DNA of 5,339 nucleotides from a virus (IMGVR_UViG_2648501390_000019), one strand, 5' to 3'. Numbered from the stretch's first letter, positions 1 through 5,339 are shown. Notes: generated from the letters alone by a model not told the origin. Program-made: numbers and translations.

Positions 1-134
1 GGTTCGGTGGGGACGGAGGGCGCGATATTTTATCGTCTGCGGATGTGGCGGATGTCATGGTGGATGATGCCGCATTAATGATGGCTTCAGCGGGGATTCC
101 GGGAGGTGTGAGATATGTCCCAGCCGGTTGGTGA
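1..134 (+). CDS. T: Tail assembly chaperone gpT-like, 3' end only (C-terminal part of the G-T frameshift product; 5' end lies outside the window)
   Basis: Frame 3 is open from the window edge to a TGA at 132..134 (translation FGGDGGRDILSSADVADVMVDDAALMMASAGIPGGVRYVPAGW*). It overlaps the H start by 20 nt, matching the lambda T/H arrangement as I recall it. Position immediately upstream of H fits the conserved order. Confidence 0.65.
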   Translation, partial: FGGDGGRDILSSADVADVMVDDAALMMASAGIPGGVRYVPAGW

Positions 135-2688
135 TCTTGTTATTGACCTGAGTCTGGATGCTGTCCGTTTCGATGAGCAGATGAGCCGGGTAAGGCGTCA
201 TTTTTCAGGTCTGGATACCGACGCCAGAAAAACCGCCAGTGCTGTTGAACAGGGCCTGAGCCGCCAGGCGCTGGCTGCACAAAAAGCCGGGATTTCCGTC
301 GGGCAGTATAAAGCGGCCATGCGAACCCTGCCCGCACAGTTTACGGATATCGCCACGCAGCTTGCCGGTGGTCAGAATCCCTGGCTGATCCTGCTGCAAC
401 AGGGCGGTCAGGTGAAGGACTCCTTCGGCGGGATGATCCCCATGTTCAGGGGGCTTGCCGGTGCGATCACCCTGCCGATGGTCGGGGTCACCTCGCTGGC
501 GGTGGCGACAGGTGCGCTGGCGTACGCCTGGTACCAGGGCGACGCCACGCTTTCAGAATTTAATAAAACGCTGGTCCTTTCCGGCAATCAGGCCGGACTG
601 ACTGCCGATCGTATGCTGACGCTCTCAAGAGCCGGGCAGGCAGCAGGGCTGACGTTTAACCAGGCGAGAGAGTCACTGGCAGCCCTGGTGAATGCCGGTG
701 TGCGTGGTGGTGAACAGTTTGATGCCATCAACCAGAGTGTCGCGCGTTTTGCGTCTGCATCCGGTGTGGAGGTGGATAAAGTCGCTGAAGCCTTCGGGAA
801 GCTGACCACTGACCCGACGTCGGGACTGATGGCGATGGCGCGCCAGTTCCGTAACGTGACGGCAGAGCAGATTGCGTATGTTGCACAGCTGCAGCGTTCC
901 GGAGACGAGGCCGGGGCATTGCAGGCGGCGAACGATATCGCCACGAAAGGCTTTGATGAGCAGACCCGTCGCCTGAAAGAAAACATGGGAACACTGGAGA
1001 CCTGGGCGGATAAAACAGGGAAGGCATTCAAATCGATGTGGGATGCCATTCTGGATATCGGTCGTCCGGAATCCTCAGCGGATATGCTCGCCAGTGCGCA
1101 GAAGGCATTTGATGAGGCGGATAAAAAATGGCAGTGGTACCAGAGCCGGAGCCAGCGCCGGGGAAAGACCTCCTCTTTTCGTGCGAACCTTCAGGGGGCA
1201 TGGGATGACCGGGAAAATGCCCGTCTGGGTCTGGCAGCGGCCACGCTGCAGTCGGATATGGAAAAAGCCGGTGAACTGGCGGCAAGGGACAGGGCTGAGC
1301 GTGAGTCGTCACAGCTGAAGTATACCGGAGAGGCGCAGAAGGCGTATGAGCGCCTGCAGACGCCGCTGGATAAATATACCGCCCGTCAGAAAGAGCTGAA
1401 TAAGGCCCTGAAAGACGGAAAAATCCTGCAGGCGGATTACAACACGCTGATGGCGTCGGCAAAAAAGGATTATGAATCGACGCTGAAAAAGCCGTCAGGT
1501 GTGAAGGTGTCTGCCGGTGAGCGCCAGGAAGACCGGGCGCATGCAGCCCTGCTGGCGCTTGAAACCGAGCTCAGGACGCTGGAAAAACACAGCGGTGTGA
1601 ATGAGAAAATCAGCCAGCAGCGCCGGGATTTATGGGAAGCGGAAAGTCAGTATGTGGTCCTGAAAGAGGCCGCCACGAAACGGCAGTTATCTGAGCAGGA
1701 AAAATCCCTGCTGACCCATGAGAAAGAGACGCTGGAGTACAAACGCCAGCTGGCTGAGCTGGGAGACAAGATTGAACACCAGAAGCGGCTGAATGAGCTG
1801 GCACAGCAGGCGGCGCGGTTTGAACAGCAGCAAAGCGCGAAGCAGGCGGCAATCAGCGCAAAAGCCCGCGGCCTCACCGACCGTCAGGCGCAGCGGGAGT
1901 CGGAAGAGCAGCGCCTTCGTGAGGTGTACGGTGATAATCCGGCTGCGCTGGCGAAGGCCACATCGGCACTGAAGAACACCTGGTCTGCGGAGGAGCAGCT
2001 TCGTGGAAGCTGGATGGCCGGGATGAAGTCCGGCTGGGGAGAGTGGGCGGAAAGTGCGACGGACAGTTTTTCGCAGGTTAAAAGTGTGGCCACGCAGACC
2101 TTTGACGGTATTGCACAGAATATGGCGGCGATGCTGACCGGCAGCGAACAGAACTGGCGCAGCTTCACCCGTTCCGTGCTGTCCATGATGACAGAAATTC
2201 TGCTTAAGCAGGCAATGGTGGGGATTGTCGGGAGTATCGGCAGCGCCATTGGCGGGGCTGTTGGTGGCGGCGCATCCGCGTCAGGCGGTACAGCCATTCA
2301 GGCCGCTGCGGCGAAATTCCATTTTGCAACCGGAGGATTTACGGGAACCGGCGGCAAATATGAGCCAGCGGGGATTGTTCACCGTGGTGAGTTTGTCTTC
2401 ACGAAGGAGGCAACCAGCCGGATTGGCGTGGGGAATCTTTACCGGCTGATGCGCGGCTATGCCACCGGCGGTTATGTCGGTACACCGGGCAGTCTGGCAG
2501 ACAGCCGGTCGCAGGCGTCCGGGACGTTTGAGCAGAATAACCATGTGGTGATTAACAACGACGGCACGAACGGGCAGATAGGGCCACAGGCGCTGAAGGC
2601 TGTGTATGACATGGCCCGCAAGGGTGCCCGTGATGAAATTCAGACACAGATGCGTGATGGTGGACTGTTCTCCGGAGGTGGACGATGA
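115..2688 (+). CDS. H: Tail tape measure protein, lambda gpH family
   Basis: 857-aa ORF with ATG at 115 preceded by GGGAGGTG. The translation is recognisably lambda gpH-like along its length (N-terminus MSQPVGDLVIDLSLDAVRFDEQM..., C-terminus ...QTQMRDGGLFSGGGR). It has hydrophobic segments near residues 88-140, a charged central region, and a Gly-rich hydrophobic stretch near the C-terminus (MVGIVGSIGSAIGGAVGGGASASGG). Lambda gpH is 853 aa from memory. Confidence 0.95.
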   Translation: MSQPVGDLVIDLSLDAVRFDEQMSRVRRHFSGLDTDARKTASAVEQGLSRQALAAQKAGISVGQYKAAMRTLPAQFTDIATQLAGGQNPWLILLQQGGQVKDSFGGMIPMFRGLAGAITLPMVGVTSLAVATGALAYAWYQGDATLSEFNKTLVLSGNQAGLTADRMLTLSRAGQAAGLTFNQARESLAALVNAGVRGGEQFDAINQSVARFASASGVEVDKVAEAFGKLTTDPTSGLMAMARQFRNVTAEQIAYVAQLQRSGDEAGALQAANDIATKGFDEQTRRLKENMGTLETWADKTGKAFKSMWDAILDIGRPESSADMLASAQKAFDEADKKWQWYQSRSQRRGKTSSFRANLQGAWDDRENARLGLAAATLQSDMEKAGELAARDRAERESSQLKYTGEAQKAYERLQTPLDKYTARQKELNKALKDGKILQADYNTLMASAKKDYESTLKKPSGVKVSAGERQEDRAHAALLALETELRTLEKHSGVNEKISQQRRDLWEAESQYVVLKEAATKRQLSEQEKSLLTHEKETLEYKRQLAELGDKIEHQKRLNELAQQAARFEQQQSAKQAAISAKARGLTDRQAQRESEEQRLREVYGDNPAALAKATSALKNTWSAEEQLRGSWMAGMKSGWGEWAESATDSFSQVKSVATQTFDGIAQNMAAMLTGSEQNWRSFTRSVLSMMTEILLKQAMVGIVGSIGSAIGGAVGGGASASGGTAIQAAAAKFHFATGGFTGTGGKYEPAGIVHRGEFVFTKEATSRIGVGNLYRLMRGYATGGYVGTPGSLADSRSQASGTFEQNNHVVINNDGTNGQIGPQALKAVYDMARKGARDEIQTQMRDGGLFSGGGR

Positions 2689-3014
2689 AAACCTTCCGCT
2701 GGAAAGTGAAACCCGGGATGGATGTGACATCGGCTCCTTCCGTCAGGGAGGTGCGCTTTGGTGATGGCTATTCCCAGCGTGCGCCTGCCGGGCTGAACGC
2801 TGACCTGAAAACGTACAGCGTGACGCTGTCTGTCTCCCGTGAGGAGGCCACGGCGCTGGAGTCGTTTCTGGCTGAGCACGGGGGCTGGAAGGCCTTTCTG
2901 TGGACGCCGCCTTATGGTTACAGGCAGATAAAGGTGACCTGCGCAAAATGGTCGTCGCAGGTCAGTATGTTGCGTGTTGAGTTCAGCGCAGAGTTTAAAC
3001 AGGTGGTGAACTGA
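2685..3014 (+). CDS. M: Minor tail protein M, lambda gpM family
   Basis: 109-aa ORF, the same length as lambda gpM, with translation MKTFRWKVKPGMDV...RVEFSAEFKQVVN recognisable as gpM. The start overlaps the H stop in an ATGA (2685..2688). A GGAGGTGG Shine-Dalgarno lies just upstream. Confidence 0.93.
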   Translation: MKTFRWKVKPGMDVTSAPSVREVRFGDGYSQRAPAGLNADLKTYSVTLSVSREEATALESFLAEHGGWKAFLWTPPYGYRQIKVTCAKWSSQVSMLRVEFSAEFKQVVN

Positions 3015-3712
3015 TGCAGGATATCCGGCAGGAAACACTGAATGAATGCACCCGTGCGGAGCAGTCGGCCAGCGTGGTGCTCTGGGAAATCGATCTGACA
3101 GAGGTCGGTGGAGAACGTTATTTTTTCTGTAATGAGCAGAACGAAAAAGGTGAGCCGGTCACCTGGCAGGGGAGACAGTATCAGGCGTATCCCATTCAGG
3201 GGAGCGGTTTTGAACTGAATGGCAAAGGCACCAGTACGCGGCCCACGCTGGCAGTCTCTAACCTGTACGGCATGGTCACCGGTATGGTGGAAGATATGCA
3301 GAGTCTGGTCGGCGGAACGGTGGTCCGGCGTAAGGTTTACGCCCGTTTTCTGGATGCGGTGAACTTCGTCAACGGAAACAGCGACGCCGATCCGGAGCAG
3401 GAGGTGATCAGCCGCTGGCGCATCGAGCAGTGCAGCGAACTGAGCGCGGTCAGTGCCTCCTTTGTACTGTCCACGCCGACGGAAACGGACGGCGCTGTTT
3501 TTCCGGGACGTATCATGCTGGCCAACACCTGCACCTGGACCTATCGCGGTGATGAGTGCGGTTATCACGGTCCGGCAGTCGCGGATGAATATGACCAGCC
3601 GACGTCCGATATCACGAAGGATAAATGCAGCAAATGCCTGAGCGGCTGTAAGTTCCGCAATAACGTCGGCAACTTTGGCGGCTTCCTTTCCATTAACAAA
3701 CTTTCGCAGTAA
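3014..3712 (+). CDS. L: Minor tail (tip) protein L, lambda gpL family; C-terminal Cys cluster consistent with an Fe-S site
   Basis: 232-aa ORF, the same length as lambda gpL, with translation MQDIRQETLNECTRAEQSASVVLWEIDL... recognisable as gpL. The start overlaps the M stop in TGATG (3012..3016). A GGTGGTG Shine-Dalgarno-like sequence lies upstream. Cysteine codons at 3530, 3557, 3626, 3635 and 3647 are clustered in the last 60 residues. Confidence 0.93.
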   Translation: MQDIRQETLNECTRAEQSASVVLWEIDLTEVGGERYFFCNEQNEKGEPVTWQGRQYQAYPIQGSGFELNGKGTSTRPTLAVSNLYGMVTGMVEDMQSLVGGTVVRRKVYARFLDAVNFVNGNSDADPEQEVISRWRIEQCSELSAVSASFVLSTPTETDGAVFPGRIMLANTCTWTYRGDECGYHGPAVADEYDQPTSDITKDKCSKCLSGCKFRNNVGNFGGFLSINKLSQ

Positions 3713-3716
3713 TCCC

Positions 3717-4460
3717 ATGACAGAGACAGAATCAGCGATTCTGGCGCACGCCCGGCGATGTGCGCCAGCGGAGTCGTGCGGCTTCGTGGTGAGAACGCCG
3801 GAGGGGGAAAGATATTTCCCCTGCGTGAATATCTCCGGTGAGCCGGAGGCGTATTTCCGGATGGCTCCGGAGGACTGGCTGCAGGCAGAGATGCAGGGTG
3901 AGATTGTGGCGCTGGTCCACAGCCACCCCGGTGGTCTGCCCTGGCTGAGTGAGGCTGACCGGCGGCTGCAGGTGCAGAGTGATTTGCCGTGGTGGCTGGT
4001 CTGCCGGGGGGCGATTCACAAGTTCCGCTGTGTGCCGCATCTCACCGGGCGGCGCTTTGAGCACGGGGTGACGGACTGTTACACGCTGTTCCGGGATGCT
4101 TACCATCTGGCGGGGATTGAGATGCCGGATTTTCATCGCGGGGATGACTGGTGGCGTCACGGTCAGAATCTCTATCTGGACAATATGGAGGCTACAGGGC
4201 TGTACCGTGTCGCACTGACAGAGGCGCAGCCGGGCGATGTGCTGCTGTGCTGTTTTGGTTCATCGGTGCCGAATCACGCCGCCATTTACTGCGGCGACGG
4301 TGAGCTGCTGCACCATATTCCTGAACAACTGAGTAAACGAGAGAGGTATACCGACAAATGGCAGCGACGCACACACTCCCTCTGGCGTCACCGGGCATGG
4401 CACGCATCTGCCTTTACGGGGATTTGCAACGATTTGGCCGCCGCATCGACCTTCGTGTGA
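3717..4460 (+). CDS. K: Tail tip assembly protein K, lambda gpK family (JAB/MPN metalloprotease-like domain plus NlpC/P60-like domain); start codon uncertain
   Basis: The frame is open from the L stop to a TGA at 4458..4460. ATG at 3717 lies 5 nt after the L stop (possible coupling, no clear Shine-Dalgarno) and gives 247 aa. ATG at 3861, preceded by GGAGG with an 11-nt spacer, gives the 199-aa form that I recall as the lambda reference annotation. The JAMM motif HSHPGGLPWLSEAD (H-x-H-x7-S-x2-D) is at 3918..3959. An NlpC/P60-like Cys (DCYTL) is at 4077..4079, with His residues downstream (NHAAIY...LLHH). The track's 3675 start is a TTG that overlaps L. Confidence 0.85.
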   Translation: MTETESAILAHARRCAPAESCGFVVRTPEGERYFPCVNISGEPEAYFRMAPEDWLQAEMQGEIVALVHSHPGGLPWLSEADRRLQVQSDLPWWLVCRGAIHKFRCVPHLTGRRFEHGVTDCYTLFRDAYHLAGIEMPDFHRGDDWWRHGQNLYLDNMEATGLYRVALTEAQPGDVLLCCFGSSVPNHAAIYCGDGELLHHIPEQLSKRERYTDKWQRRTHSLWRHRAWHASAFTGICNDLAAASTFV

Positions 4461-4999
4461 AAACGGGGGCTGAAGCCATCCGGGCACTGGCCACACAGCT
4501 CCCGGCGTTTCGTCAGAAACTGAGCGATGGCTGGTATCAGGTACGGATTGCCGGGCGGGATGCAGGAGAAACCGAATTATCATCCCGTCTTAATGAGCCG
4601 CTGGCAAATGGTGCCGTGATCCACATCGTGCCGCGTCTTGCGGGAGCAAAAAGTGGCGGTGTGTTTCAGGCGGTGCTGGGTGCGGCGTTGATTGCTACGG
4701 CAATCTGGATGCCGGGGATCAGTATCGCTTTCAGTGACATTCTCTTTTCAATGGGTGCGGCGATGACGCTTGGTGGTGTGGCGCAGATGCTGGCACCGAA
4801 AGCCAGAACTCCCCGTACACAGACAACGGATAACGGCAAACAGAACACCTATTTCTCCTCACTGGATAACATGGTTGCCCAGGGCAATGTCCTGCCTGTT
4901 CTGTACGGTGAAATGCGCGTGGGGTCACGTGTGGCATCTCAGGAGATCAGCACGGCAGATGAAGGGGATGGTGGTCAGGTTGTGGTAATTGGGCGGTAA
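4358..4999 (+). CDS. I: Tail assembly protein I, lambda gpI family (N-terminal ubiquitin-like region ending in Gly-Gly, hydrophobic C-terminal region)
   Basis: 213-aa ORF with ATG at 4358 preceded by GAGAGG, and translation MAATHTLPLASPGMARICLYGDLQRFGRR... ending ...EGDGGQVVVIGR, recognisable as gpI. It overlaps the 3' end of K by 103 nt in a different frame, as in lambda. A di-glycine is at residues 100-101 (4655..4660), followed by a long hydrophobic segment. Confidence 0.9.
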   Translation: MAATHTLPLASPGMARICLYGDLQRFGRRIDLRVKTGAEAIRALATQLPAFRQKLSDGWYQVRIAGRDAGETELSSRLNEPLANGAVIHIVPRLAGAKSGGVFQAVLGAALIATAIWMPGISIAFSDILFSMGAAMTLGGVAQMLAPKARTPRTQTTDNGKQNTYFSSLDNMVAQGNVLPVLYGEMRVGSRVASQEISTADEGDGGQVVVIGR

Positions 5000-5072
5000 T
5001 ATTATTTTACTCATGTTCTAACTAATTTAATATTTATATCGAACACTGATAATTATTCTATTGGTTAGCTAT
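5000..5072 (+). promoter_or_regulatory. AT-rich intergenic segment; candidate promoter region for the downstream lipoprotein ORF (weak, unverified)
   Basis: A GATAAT hexamer at 5048..5053 is a 5/6 match to the -10 consensus, but I found no convincing -35. The region is so AT-rich that hexamer matches are expected by chance. Confidence 0.2.
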
Positions 5073-5249
5073 ATGAACAAAACGATTTTATTCTGCACGA
5101 TTATTGCCTTAACAGGATGTAAATCTTTGGATTACGTAAAATCCGGAAAACCTGTAATGGAAGGTAATTCATTAAAAAATATTGATGAATTGTCAGGCTG
5201 CATATCCAGACAATGGGCTGGTAATGGAACACCTATAACATCCCGGTGA
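5073..5249 (+). CDS. Putative small lipoprotein; reading frame runs into the IS1 end and is probably truncated by the insertion
   Basis: ATG at 5073 gives MNKTILFCTIIALTGCKSL..., a classic lipoprotein signal peptide: a short basic n-region, a hydrophobic core, and a lipobox L-T-G-C with Lys at +2. The segment is AT-rich, unlike the tail module. The last codons (cgg, tga at 5244..5249) are supplied by the IS1 terminal repeat, so the native C-terminus is not known. The track's TTG start at 5061 is less likely. Confidence 0.45.
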   Translation: MNKTILFCTIIALTGCKSLDYVKSGKPVMEGNSLKNIDELSGCISRQWAGNGTPITSR

Positions 5250-5267
5250 TGCTGCCAACTTACTGAT
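5245..5267 (+). repeat. IS1 left terminal inverted repeat (about 23 bp)
   Basis: GGTGATGCTGCCAACTTACTGAT at the outer end of the IS1 match. Confidence 0.8.
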
Positions 5268-5299
5268 TTAGTGTATGATGGTGTTTTTGAGGTGCTCCA

Positions 5300-5339
5300 G
5301 TGGCTTCTGTTTCTATCAGCTGTCCCTCCTGTTCAGCTA
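5300..5339 (+). CDS. insA: IS1 InsA (transposition repressor / N-terminal part of the InsAB' transposase), 5' end only
   Basis: GTG at 5300 followed by GCT TCT GTT TCT ATC AGC TGT CCC TCC TGT TCA GCT, which translates to (M)ASVSISCPSCSA, the InsA N-terminus including its first Cys pair. It sits 56 nt into the element, as expected for insA. Confidence 0.8.
   Translation, partial: MASVSISCPSCSA

Follow-up and report, generated by a model that had tools for sequence, protein, structure and literature searches.

The feature at the 3' end of the window (the window being the whole 5,339-nucleotide stretch of DNA analysed) is an ordinary IS1-disrupted pseudogene, and the gene from which it is derived, as represented by the intact allele of Escherichia coli UTI89, encodes a moron-encoded envelope lipoprotein of a conserved family, phrog_914. 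There is very little doubt about the combined assignment, namely that 5073-5244 represents codons 1-57 of a lipoprotein gene of phrog_914 which IS1 has cut after nt 172, that the intact gene is a moron between the tail genes I and J, and that its product carries a signal peptidase II lipobox, a +2 residue other than an inner-membrane retention one, and a mature domain with two invariant cysteines. The protein is already present in the databases as a "hypothetical protein" and as phrog_914. The coordinates of the features in the window are collected in Table 1.

Table 1. Features of the window, with their positions, strand and the basis of each assignment.
Feature	Position	Strand	Basis
Tape-measure gene H	115-2688	+	ORF list / source-contig gene calls
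Tail gene M	2685-3014	+	ORF list / source-contig gene calls
Tail gene L	3014-3712	+	ORF list / source-contig gene calls
Tail gene K	3717-4460	+	ORF list / source-contig gene calls
Tail gene I, gpI-type tail-tip plug protein, upstream side of the I-J slot	4424-4999	+	Pfam Lambda_tail_I, E=9.5e-20; contig gene call
AT-rich leader of the lipoprotein moron, 73 nt, ~24% GC	5000-5072	+	Composition; absent at the I-J junction of vB_EcoS-640R1
phrog_914 lipoprotein gene, 5' 172 nt only (codons 1-57)	5073-5244	+	Identical to nt 1-172 of the WP_001332187.1 gene
Signal peptide with lipobox L-T-G-C; codon of lipidated Cys16 at 5118-5120; Lys at +2	5073-5120	+	PS51257-type pattern
Codon of Cys43, invariant non-lipid Cys	5199-5201	+	Alignment of 62 members; presumed partner Cys111 lost here
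Terminal 95 bp of IS1, inverted-repeat end GGTGATGCTGCCAACTTACTGAT...	5245-5339	+	All 95 bp identical to copies annotated IS1A/IS1B
TGA stop from IS1, closing the truncated frame	5247-5249	+	Sequence and ORF list

The window is the entire draft contig JHRB01000277.1 (assembly GCA_001265265.1), whose gene calls do not include the lipoprotein fragment. The contig ends 95 bp into IS1, where the assembler stopped at the repeat, and therefore the sequence beyond IS1 in the source strain is not visible. The tail module is lambdoid, and positions 1-5244 were aligned with the prophage of E. coli UTI89 at 99.3% identity and free of gaps over 5244 bp; the homologues of gene I are labelled 'tail assembly protein' in UTI89 and ATCC 11775. 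No Rfam family reached its gathering score in the window, and the sole Rfam match in the intact region, GcvB, was rejected (19.6 bits versus the 42 needed).

The reading frame starts with the ATG at 5073-5075, from which the intact alleles are annotated (the ORF list opens the frame at TTG 5061), and runs through 58 sense codons to the TGA at 5247-5249, which lies inside IS1, as had been read from the window alone. Codon 58 (CGG, 5244-5246) spans the junction with IS1 and encodes Arg, and the surviving product thus consists of 57 native residues of 112 together with one junction-encoded Arg. A complete IS1 insertion is typically flanked by a target duplication of 8-9 bp. Because IS1 insertions are polar, the expression of J from the late operon is probably impaired in this prophage, which is likely tail-defective. 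No exact match to the 58-aa or the 62-aa truncated product was found, the IS1 junction sequence was absent from the species genomes and viral contigs searched, and among complete E. coli genomes none covered more than 60% of window positions 5100-5339. The fragment retains the signal peptide, one helix and just one of the five beta-strands, and it ends before the C-terminal helix and Cys111; with these elements lost, the truncated product is predicted from the model of the intact protein to be unable to fold and to be non-functional.

Three different insertion sequences were observed inside this 339-bp gene in independent strains, at sites within ~12 bp of one another. IS1 follows gene nt 172 in the window (5232-5244 corresponds to gene nt 160-172), an IS5 is present in an IMG/VR contig (locus L072, 1-215) whose right flank restarts at ~nt 160-161, and a complete 1258-bp IS3 with a 3-bp duplication AAC (nt 165-167) is present in E. 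coli GN05476 (locus L075, 2742-4001). The element in L072 had been considered as IS2, and this identity was rejected as BLAST assigned it to IS5. The AT-rich DNA at nt ~160-172 may locally favour insertion as a hot spot, a remark to be set against the 333 of 337 complete-genome carriers in which the gene is full length.

The intact allele (WP_001332187.1) is a 112-aa hypothetical protein encoded by a 339-bp gene between I and J in UTI89 and ATCC 11775, in which J begins 66 nt past the stop codon of the lipoprotein gene. The gene region was found in 337 of 5426 complete E. coli genomes (~6%), with the full-length gene in all but four of them, and the intact 112-aa protein is encoded by 58 of the 61 E. 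coli-type viral loci. The carriers listed include UTI89, APEC O1, S88, IHE3034 and NU14, and also O104:H4 and 042. Between the E. coli alleles, 11 synonymous and 6 non-synonymous changes were counted, with 22% synonymous changes expected at random (p=2e-4), and this excess indicates purifying selection. The ORF at 5073-5244 thus belongs to a real gene under such selection, and the window copy is a pseudogene. The original prediction had held that the native protein was probably longer and that the copy here was a pseudogene, and had advised a search for intact, IS1-free homologues; it is borne out by the 112-aa allele in the I-J slot and by the full-length gene in 333 of 337 genomes.

The phrog_914 HMM was aligned with the intact protein at E=7.3e-33 (residues 1-112 on profile positions 1-118 of 118), and it was matched by all of the 62 diverse members tested. 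In the profile search, ~122 representative clusters were recovered at E<=1e-3, nearly all of 105-125 aa and spanning Gammaproteobacteria. Full-length homologues with 50-60% identity and 31 invariant columns were obtained from Klebsiella, Enterobacter, Kluyvera and Jejubacter, and the sources recovered in the profile search include Yersinia, Hafnia, Shimwellia and Dyella, with copies in Pseudomonas phages as well. The phage records carrying members are all of temperate-type siphophages. Among GTDB species-representative genomes, a close relative was found in one only (a Kluyvera locus), so that the gene is not a core gene.

No Pfam family was returned at E<=10 for the intact protein and none among its 62 relatives, PADLOC gave no match to the intact protein, and the sequence searches of the PDB returned noise only. 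The NCBIfam model VirB7 was rejected, as it scored 12.7 bits versus a cut-off of 60 and was restricted to the signal-peptide region. The mature sequence, which had not been recognised in the initial reading either, has no match in Pfam, NCBIfam or PADLOC. In the literature search, no paper mentioning WP_001332187.1 was found. The RefSeq locus tag of the gene in UTI89 (UTI89_RS29190; locus L001, 6124-6462) is out of series with those of its neighbours (RS07275 and RS07280), which suggests that the gene was overlooked in the original annotation and added later; this late annotation may explain the lack of literature on it.

The N-terminal sequence MNKTILFCTIIALTGC fits the PROSITE rule PS51257, which was applied as a positively charged n-region, a hydrophobic h-region and the motif [LVI][ASTVI][GAS]C, the Cys of which falls within residues 15-35, and the textbook lipoprotein signal that had been proposed (lipidated Cys16 followed by Lys at +2) was thus found to be genuine. 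A lipobox of this type was detected in 57 of the 62 members, with Asp at +2 in none of the 57; each of the remaining five is either a truncated call or a near-consensus variant in which the GC dipeptide is still present. G15 and C16 are invariant in the close relatives, and only C16, C43 and C111 are invariant among the 62 diverse members. Exactly three Cys were counted in the mature protein of 53 of the 57 lipobox-positive members, and a disulfide between Cys43 and Cys111 probably joins the two helices. The mature domain is of ~97 aa (~10.5 kDa). Based on the lipobox, the +2 residues (with sorting read from the E. coli +2 rule, Lys at +2) and the conserved cysteines, the intact protein is predicted to reside in the outer membrane with its anchor in the inner leaflet, to face the periplasm and to contain one disulfide.

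The AlphaFold2 model, built from an 11-sequence alignment, was obtained with a pLDDT of 83.7 and a pTM of 0.76, and its topology is strand-helix-four strands-helix. The nearest solved structure is Francisella Flpp3 (DUF3568), deposited as a 'virulence determinant' lipoprotein, and the other fold matches were helix-grip, START-like, DUF302, KA1 and BamC N-domain structures, all at 6-12% identity; Llp and Rtp45 were absent among the fold matches listed. The only significant viral structural match was an uncharacterised protein of phiAH14a, which is itself a phrog_914 member. As these matches are of a generic alpha+beta type, the fold reveals no function.

In UTI89 the GC content falls from ~58% in the upstream flank to 24% in the 80-nt leader and 36% in the gene, and returns to 59% in the downstream flank. 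A stretch of ~420 bp, made up of leader and ORF, that UTI89 shares with the window is missing in the alignment at the I-J junction of vB_EcoS-640R1, in which I is followed directly by J and the J C-terminus is 97.6% identical to that of UTI89. By the tests of extra DNA and of GC content, the intact lipoprotein gene is a moron in the Juhala/Hendrix sense. The GC content was below that of the flanks in 10 of 10 phage-borne copies examined, marginally so (41% versus 43-44%) in the Yersinia locus L076. The low GC content given in the original prediction is thereby confirmed; of its placement as cargo at the edge of a tail module, the cargo position between I and J in a lambdoid tail module stood, but the gene lies inside the tail operon and not at the edge of the module.

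The family occupies several slots. It is found in the I-J slot in E. coli, in the K-I slot in mEpX2, HK140, Fraca, LMessi, the P. aeruginosa phage D14P, Yersinia prophages and Klebsiella-, Enterobacter- or Kluyvera-type loci, and in the T-H slot, from the G/T chaperone genes to the tape-measure gene, in loci L066-L071. The T-H slot is that of the original moron, HK97 gene 15 (PMC3594210). In the tail-operon contexts, the gene is co-oriented with and embedded in the late tail operon, and copies with 25-35% identity have repeatedly been retained in tail operons of phages whose hosts range from Escherichia to Pseudomonas. No sigma-70 consensus was found on the + strand in the scan of the 73-nt leader, in which weak -10-like hexamers can be seen by eye. 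The leader (5000-5072) presumably carries the gene's own promoter, and expression in the lysogen is likewise presumed.

A canonical terminator follows the gene in most phage-borne copies (that of L064 is unclear), and a strong hairpin with a T-run follows the UTI89-type gene. The empty I-J site of vB_EcoS-640R1 already has a homologous hairpin of its own, and hence the downstream hairpin is no evidence of an independent transcription unit there and was down-weighted as proof of an independent cassette. A near-identical hairpin, AAACCACC-NNNN-GGTGGTTTTTTTATGG, was observed just upstream of gene I after unrelated morons, with the hairpin-sharing loci being HK022 gp20 (locus L092, 2249-2520), locus L074 (~6350-6385) and Fraca (locus L003, 7353-7380), the last two carrying phrog_914 members. 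HK022 gp20 is a different moron, a small single-pass membrane protein in the K-I slot. The near-identical hairpins suggest cassette exchange at a conserved slot boundary, and the terminators look like shared slot boundaries rather than parts of the lipoprotein cassette.

Several further settings of the family were recorded. In vB_PaeS-D14P (locus L090, 3956-4294), a full-length, unannotated member (MRIVAVGAALLLLAGCYSPSDL...) lies between K and I with a GC content of 51% versus 66% and 57% in its flanks, and a terminator is located just before I. In the Yersinia enterocolitica prophages (loci L076-L078, 3400-8000), the K-I gap is ~4.5 kb long and contains the lipoprotein gene, a P22 immI-like set (Arc-type repressors, Bro-N/ANT antirepressor-like and KilA-N) and a SocA_Panacea-domain gene, constituting an unusually large accessory island within the tail operon. 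The phiAH14a member p33 (locus L089, 3488-4942, p35-p32) is not part of the tail module but follows the repressor gene in the same orientation; it was apparently called too short, and directly after it comes a stray gpI-like gene, p32, which scored 21.4 bits with Pfam Lambda_tail_I, just under the cut-off of 23.8. A homologue with 38% identity was found in a chromosomal setting in Shimwellia blattae (CP001560.1; locus L079, 8001-8339), in the order of copC/copD/yebY, a yidB-like gene, the lipoprotein gene and ecotin. It could be a cellular relative or an ancestor of the phage morons, and its chromosomal position implies that the fold also has some cellular role. Fraca carries both an annotated cor gene downstream of J (locus L003, 12579-12812) and a phrog_914 member in K-I, so that Cor and phrog_914 are not simple alternatives.

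Exclusion of phages that use the prophage's own receptor predicts linkage of the lipoprotein gene to the C-terminus of J, and such linkage was not observed. Lipoprotein alleles at 98-100% identity were found beside at least four J C-terminal types, the J C-termini next to these near-identical alleles being 97-100%, 64-69% or 52-55% identical or without a match. In the converse comparison, the J C-terminus of UTI89 was found at 95% identity or more in 17 phage records, and the gene was absent from this collection but for distant relatives. The linkage fails both ways, and the lipoprotein gene is accordingly not a dedicated partner of one receptor-binding domain. This leaves four options, namely heterotypic or receptor-independent exclusion, host fitness, a helper role in the lytic cycle and a cellular role.

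We tentatively favour the first of these, in which the intact lipoprotein may be an envelope-level phage exclusion factor. It would be made in the lysogen as a factor of lysogenic conversion and would act at the periplasmic face of the outer membrane against superinfecting phages. It would either lock a receptor in that membrane, in the manner of Llp, Cor and Rtp45, or obstruct a later step in the crossing of the envelope. The proposal is favoured by the nature of HK97 gp15, the other characterised slot occupant, for which exclusion has been demonstrated experimentally (PMC3594210), by the retention of the family in temperate siphophage tail operons across distant hosts, and by its members in phages whose hosts are environmental, for which virulence in mammals plays no part. 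The slots are recognised moron slots, which adds to its plausibility. Binding of small phage lipoproteins to a receptor from the periplasmic side is an established mechanism of exclusion (PMC12685063; PMC9586334), with T5 Llp acting on FhuA (PMC9586334), Rtp45 on LptDE (PMC12685063) and Cor, according to the summary in PMC3594210, also on FhuA. The authors of the phiAH14a paper offered a Cor-like role as a speculation for another lipoprotein of the tail module of that phage (PMC4936722). Against the exclusion proposal count the leader without a consensus promoter, the hairpin at the empty I-J site, the missing linkage to J, the larger size of the mature protein than that of Llp or Rtp45, the absence of both from the fold matches listed, and the chromosomal homologue of Shimwellia.

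In a more specific, receptor-independent version, phrog_914 proteins on the periplasmic face would block the breach of the outer membrane by gpI and the tape-measure protein of an incoming lambdoid tail. The missing linkage to J, the frequent abutment to gene I and the pairing with a gpI-like gene in phiAH14a point in this direction, and for gpI, the plug of the tail tip, insertion of its hydrophobic helices into the outer membrane of the host has been proposed (PMC11101478, PMC12617516). However, both K-I and I-J are generic moron sites, with unrelated annotated moron products in HK022 (gp20 in K-I, gp22 and gp23 in I-J), and adjacency to gene I was consequently down-weighted as functional evidence, by which this version is considered improbable.

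Of the explanations other than exclusion, the one that survives best is a factor of host fitness or virulence unrelated to phages (serum resistance, envelope robustness or adhesion), like Bor/Iss or Lom. The carriers listed are largely extraintestinal-pathogenic and avian-pathogenic strains, a Lom/Ail gene lies just after J in the same UTI89 prophage, the best fold match is the 'virulence determinant' Flpp3, and the lack of a link to the receptor-binding end of J is in keeping with it; this explanation is judged possible, if rather unlikely. A captured cellular periplasmic lipoprotein with a housekeeping role in binding small molecules or lipids, carried as near-neutral phage cargo, is unlikely. 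The chromosomal copy of Shimwellia, with its host-like GC content of 62% and without the terminator cassette, would agree with such an origin, as would the resemblance of the fold to helix-grip, START-like, DUF302, KA1 and BamC N-domain proteins, several of which bind lipids or ligands, and morons are often of bacterial gene origin (PMC3594210). Near-neutral carriage is, however, opposed by the purifying selection in the E. coli prophage copies and by the repeated retention in tail operons, which argues for a selected, phage-relevant benefit, and a cellular source by the restriction of the close relatives to one GTDB species-representative.

A helper of the lytic cycle, which would keep progeny off the receptors on debris (the role proposed for T5 Llp) or aid release, is doubtful as a separate explanation. 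The gene lies inside and co-oriented with the late tail operon. Antiterminated late transcription reads through the lambda late operon and would thus also read through the lipoprotein gene. Exclusion factors are described as also preventing adsorption to cell fragments after lysis (PMC12685063), and this explanation largely overlaps with the exclusion proposal rather than competing with it; the carrier phages being all temperate-type siphophages and the missing link to the receptor-binding domain count against it. Finally, the possibility that the fragment arose as an ORF by chance in AT-rich DNA or begins a larger, unrelated protein, which the original prediction had named as its refutation and for which nothing speaks except that the fragment is short (58 codons) and AT-rich, is refuted by full-length homologues conserved across genera with an invariant Cys and lipobox, by the excess of synonymous changes, by the confident AlphaFold model (pLDDT of 83.7), and by the stand-alone length of 105-125 aa in nearly all members.

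For the window itself, the result is a dead cargo gene in a prophage probably crippled by IS1. For the family, it is the presence of phrog_914 in temperate siphophage tail operons of hosts as diverse as Escherichia, Klebsiella, Yersinia and Pseudomonas, with well-known uropathogenic, avian and neonatal-meningitis strains among the E. coli carriers. If the intact protein excludes phages, a new fold would be added to the few known exclusion lipoproteins, which would matter for the prediction of host range in phage therapy, and if both Cor and phrog_914 proteins exclude, they would not be redundant alternatives in Fraca. If it is a host-fitness factor, it would represent a further prophage contribution to the envelope of extraintestinal-pathogenic E. 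coli.

In comparison with known systems, Flpp3/DUF3568, DUF302, KA1 and the BamC N-domain share 6-12% identity with the intact protein, with no profile match found, and by sequence profile the family thus falls outside DUF3568/Flpp3. No sequence homology to a characterised Cor or Llp member was found, and neither Llp nor Rtp45 is among the fold matches listed. Lambda Bor/Iss is a prophage outer-membrane lipoprotein of ~100 aa which acts in lysogenic conversion and is common in extraintestinal-pathogenic E. coli, and no match of Pfam Lambda_Bor was found to the intact protein or to the 62 relatives. In lambda, bor neighbours the lysis genes and lies outside the tail operon. Llp and Bor, which had been put forward as analogues, therefore hold as analogies, but beyond the signal peptide the lipoprotein has no sequence relation to Bor, Cor or Llp, the sequence match to Llp covering residues 1-20 only (E=1.2).

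Llp and Rtp45 are periplasm-facing siphophage lipoproteins whose binding to the receptor alters its external loops (PMC9586334, PMC12685063). They are of ~6 kDa, are encoded next to the gene of the receptor-binding protein and are specific to the receptor (llp with pb5), whereas the phrog_914 product is larger (~10.5 kDa), has an alpha+beta fold and is unlinked to the receptor-binding end of J. Cor (phi80, N15, HK022 and T1; phrog_1119) resembles the predicted phrog_914 product in being a small outer-membrane lipoprotein of temperate lambdoid siphophages encoded in or near the tail region, and as it acts in the lysogen it provides the natural functional analogy. The two are not homologous, since only 2 of the 62 members touch phrog_1119 (E~5e-4), which was read as similarity of the signal peptides, and the position of cor is past J or the fibre genes, in phages that use FhuA and to which it is tied, unlike phrog_914. 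HK97 gp15 differs in being a small inner-membrane YebO-like protein, which is not a lipoprotein and is unrelated in sequence. It is nevertheless, like the phrog_914 gene product, encoded by a moron in the tail operon with a GC content unlike that of its surroundings, in the same T-H slot in which phrog_914 members are found, and it also has cellular homologues and blocks the entry of DNA without touching the receptor (PMC3594210).
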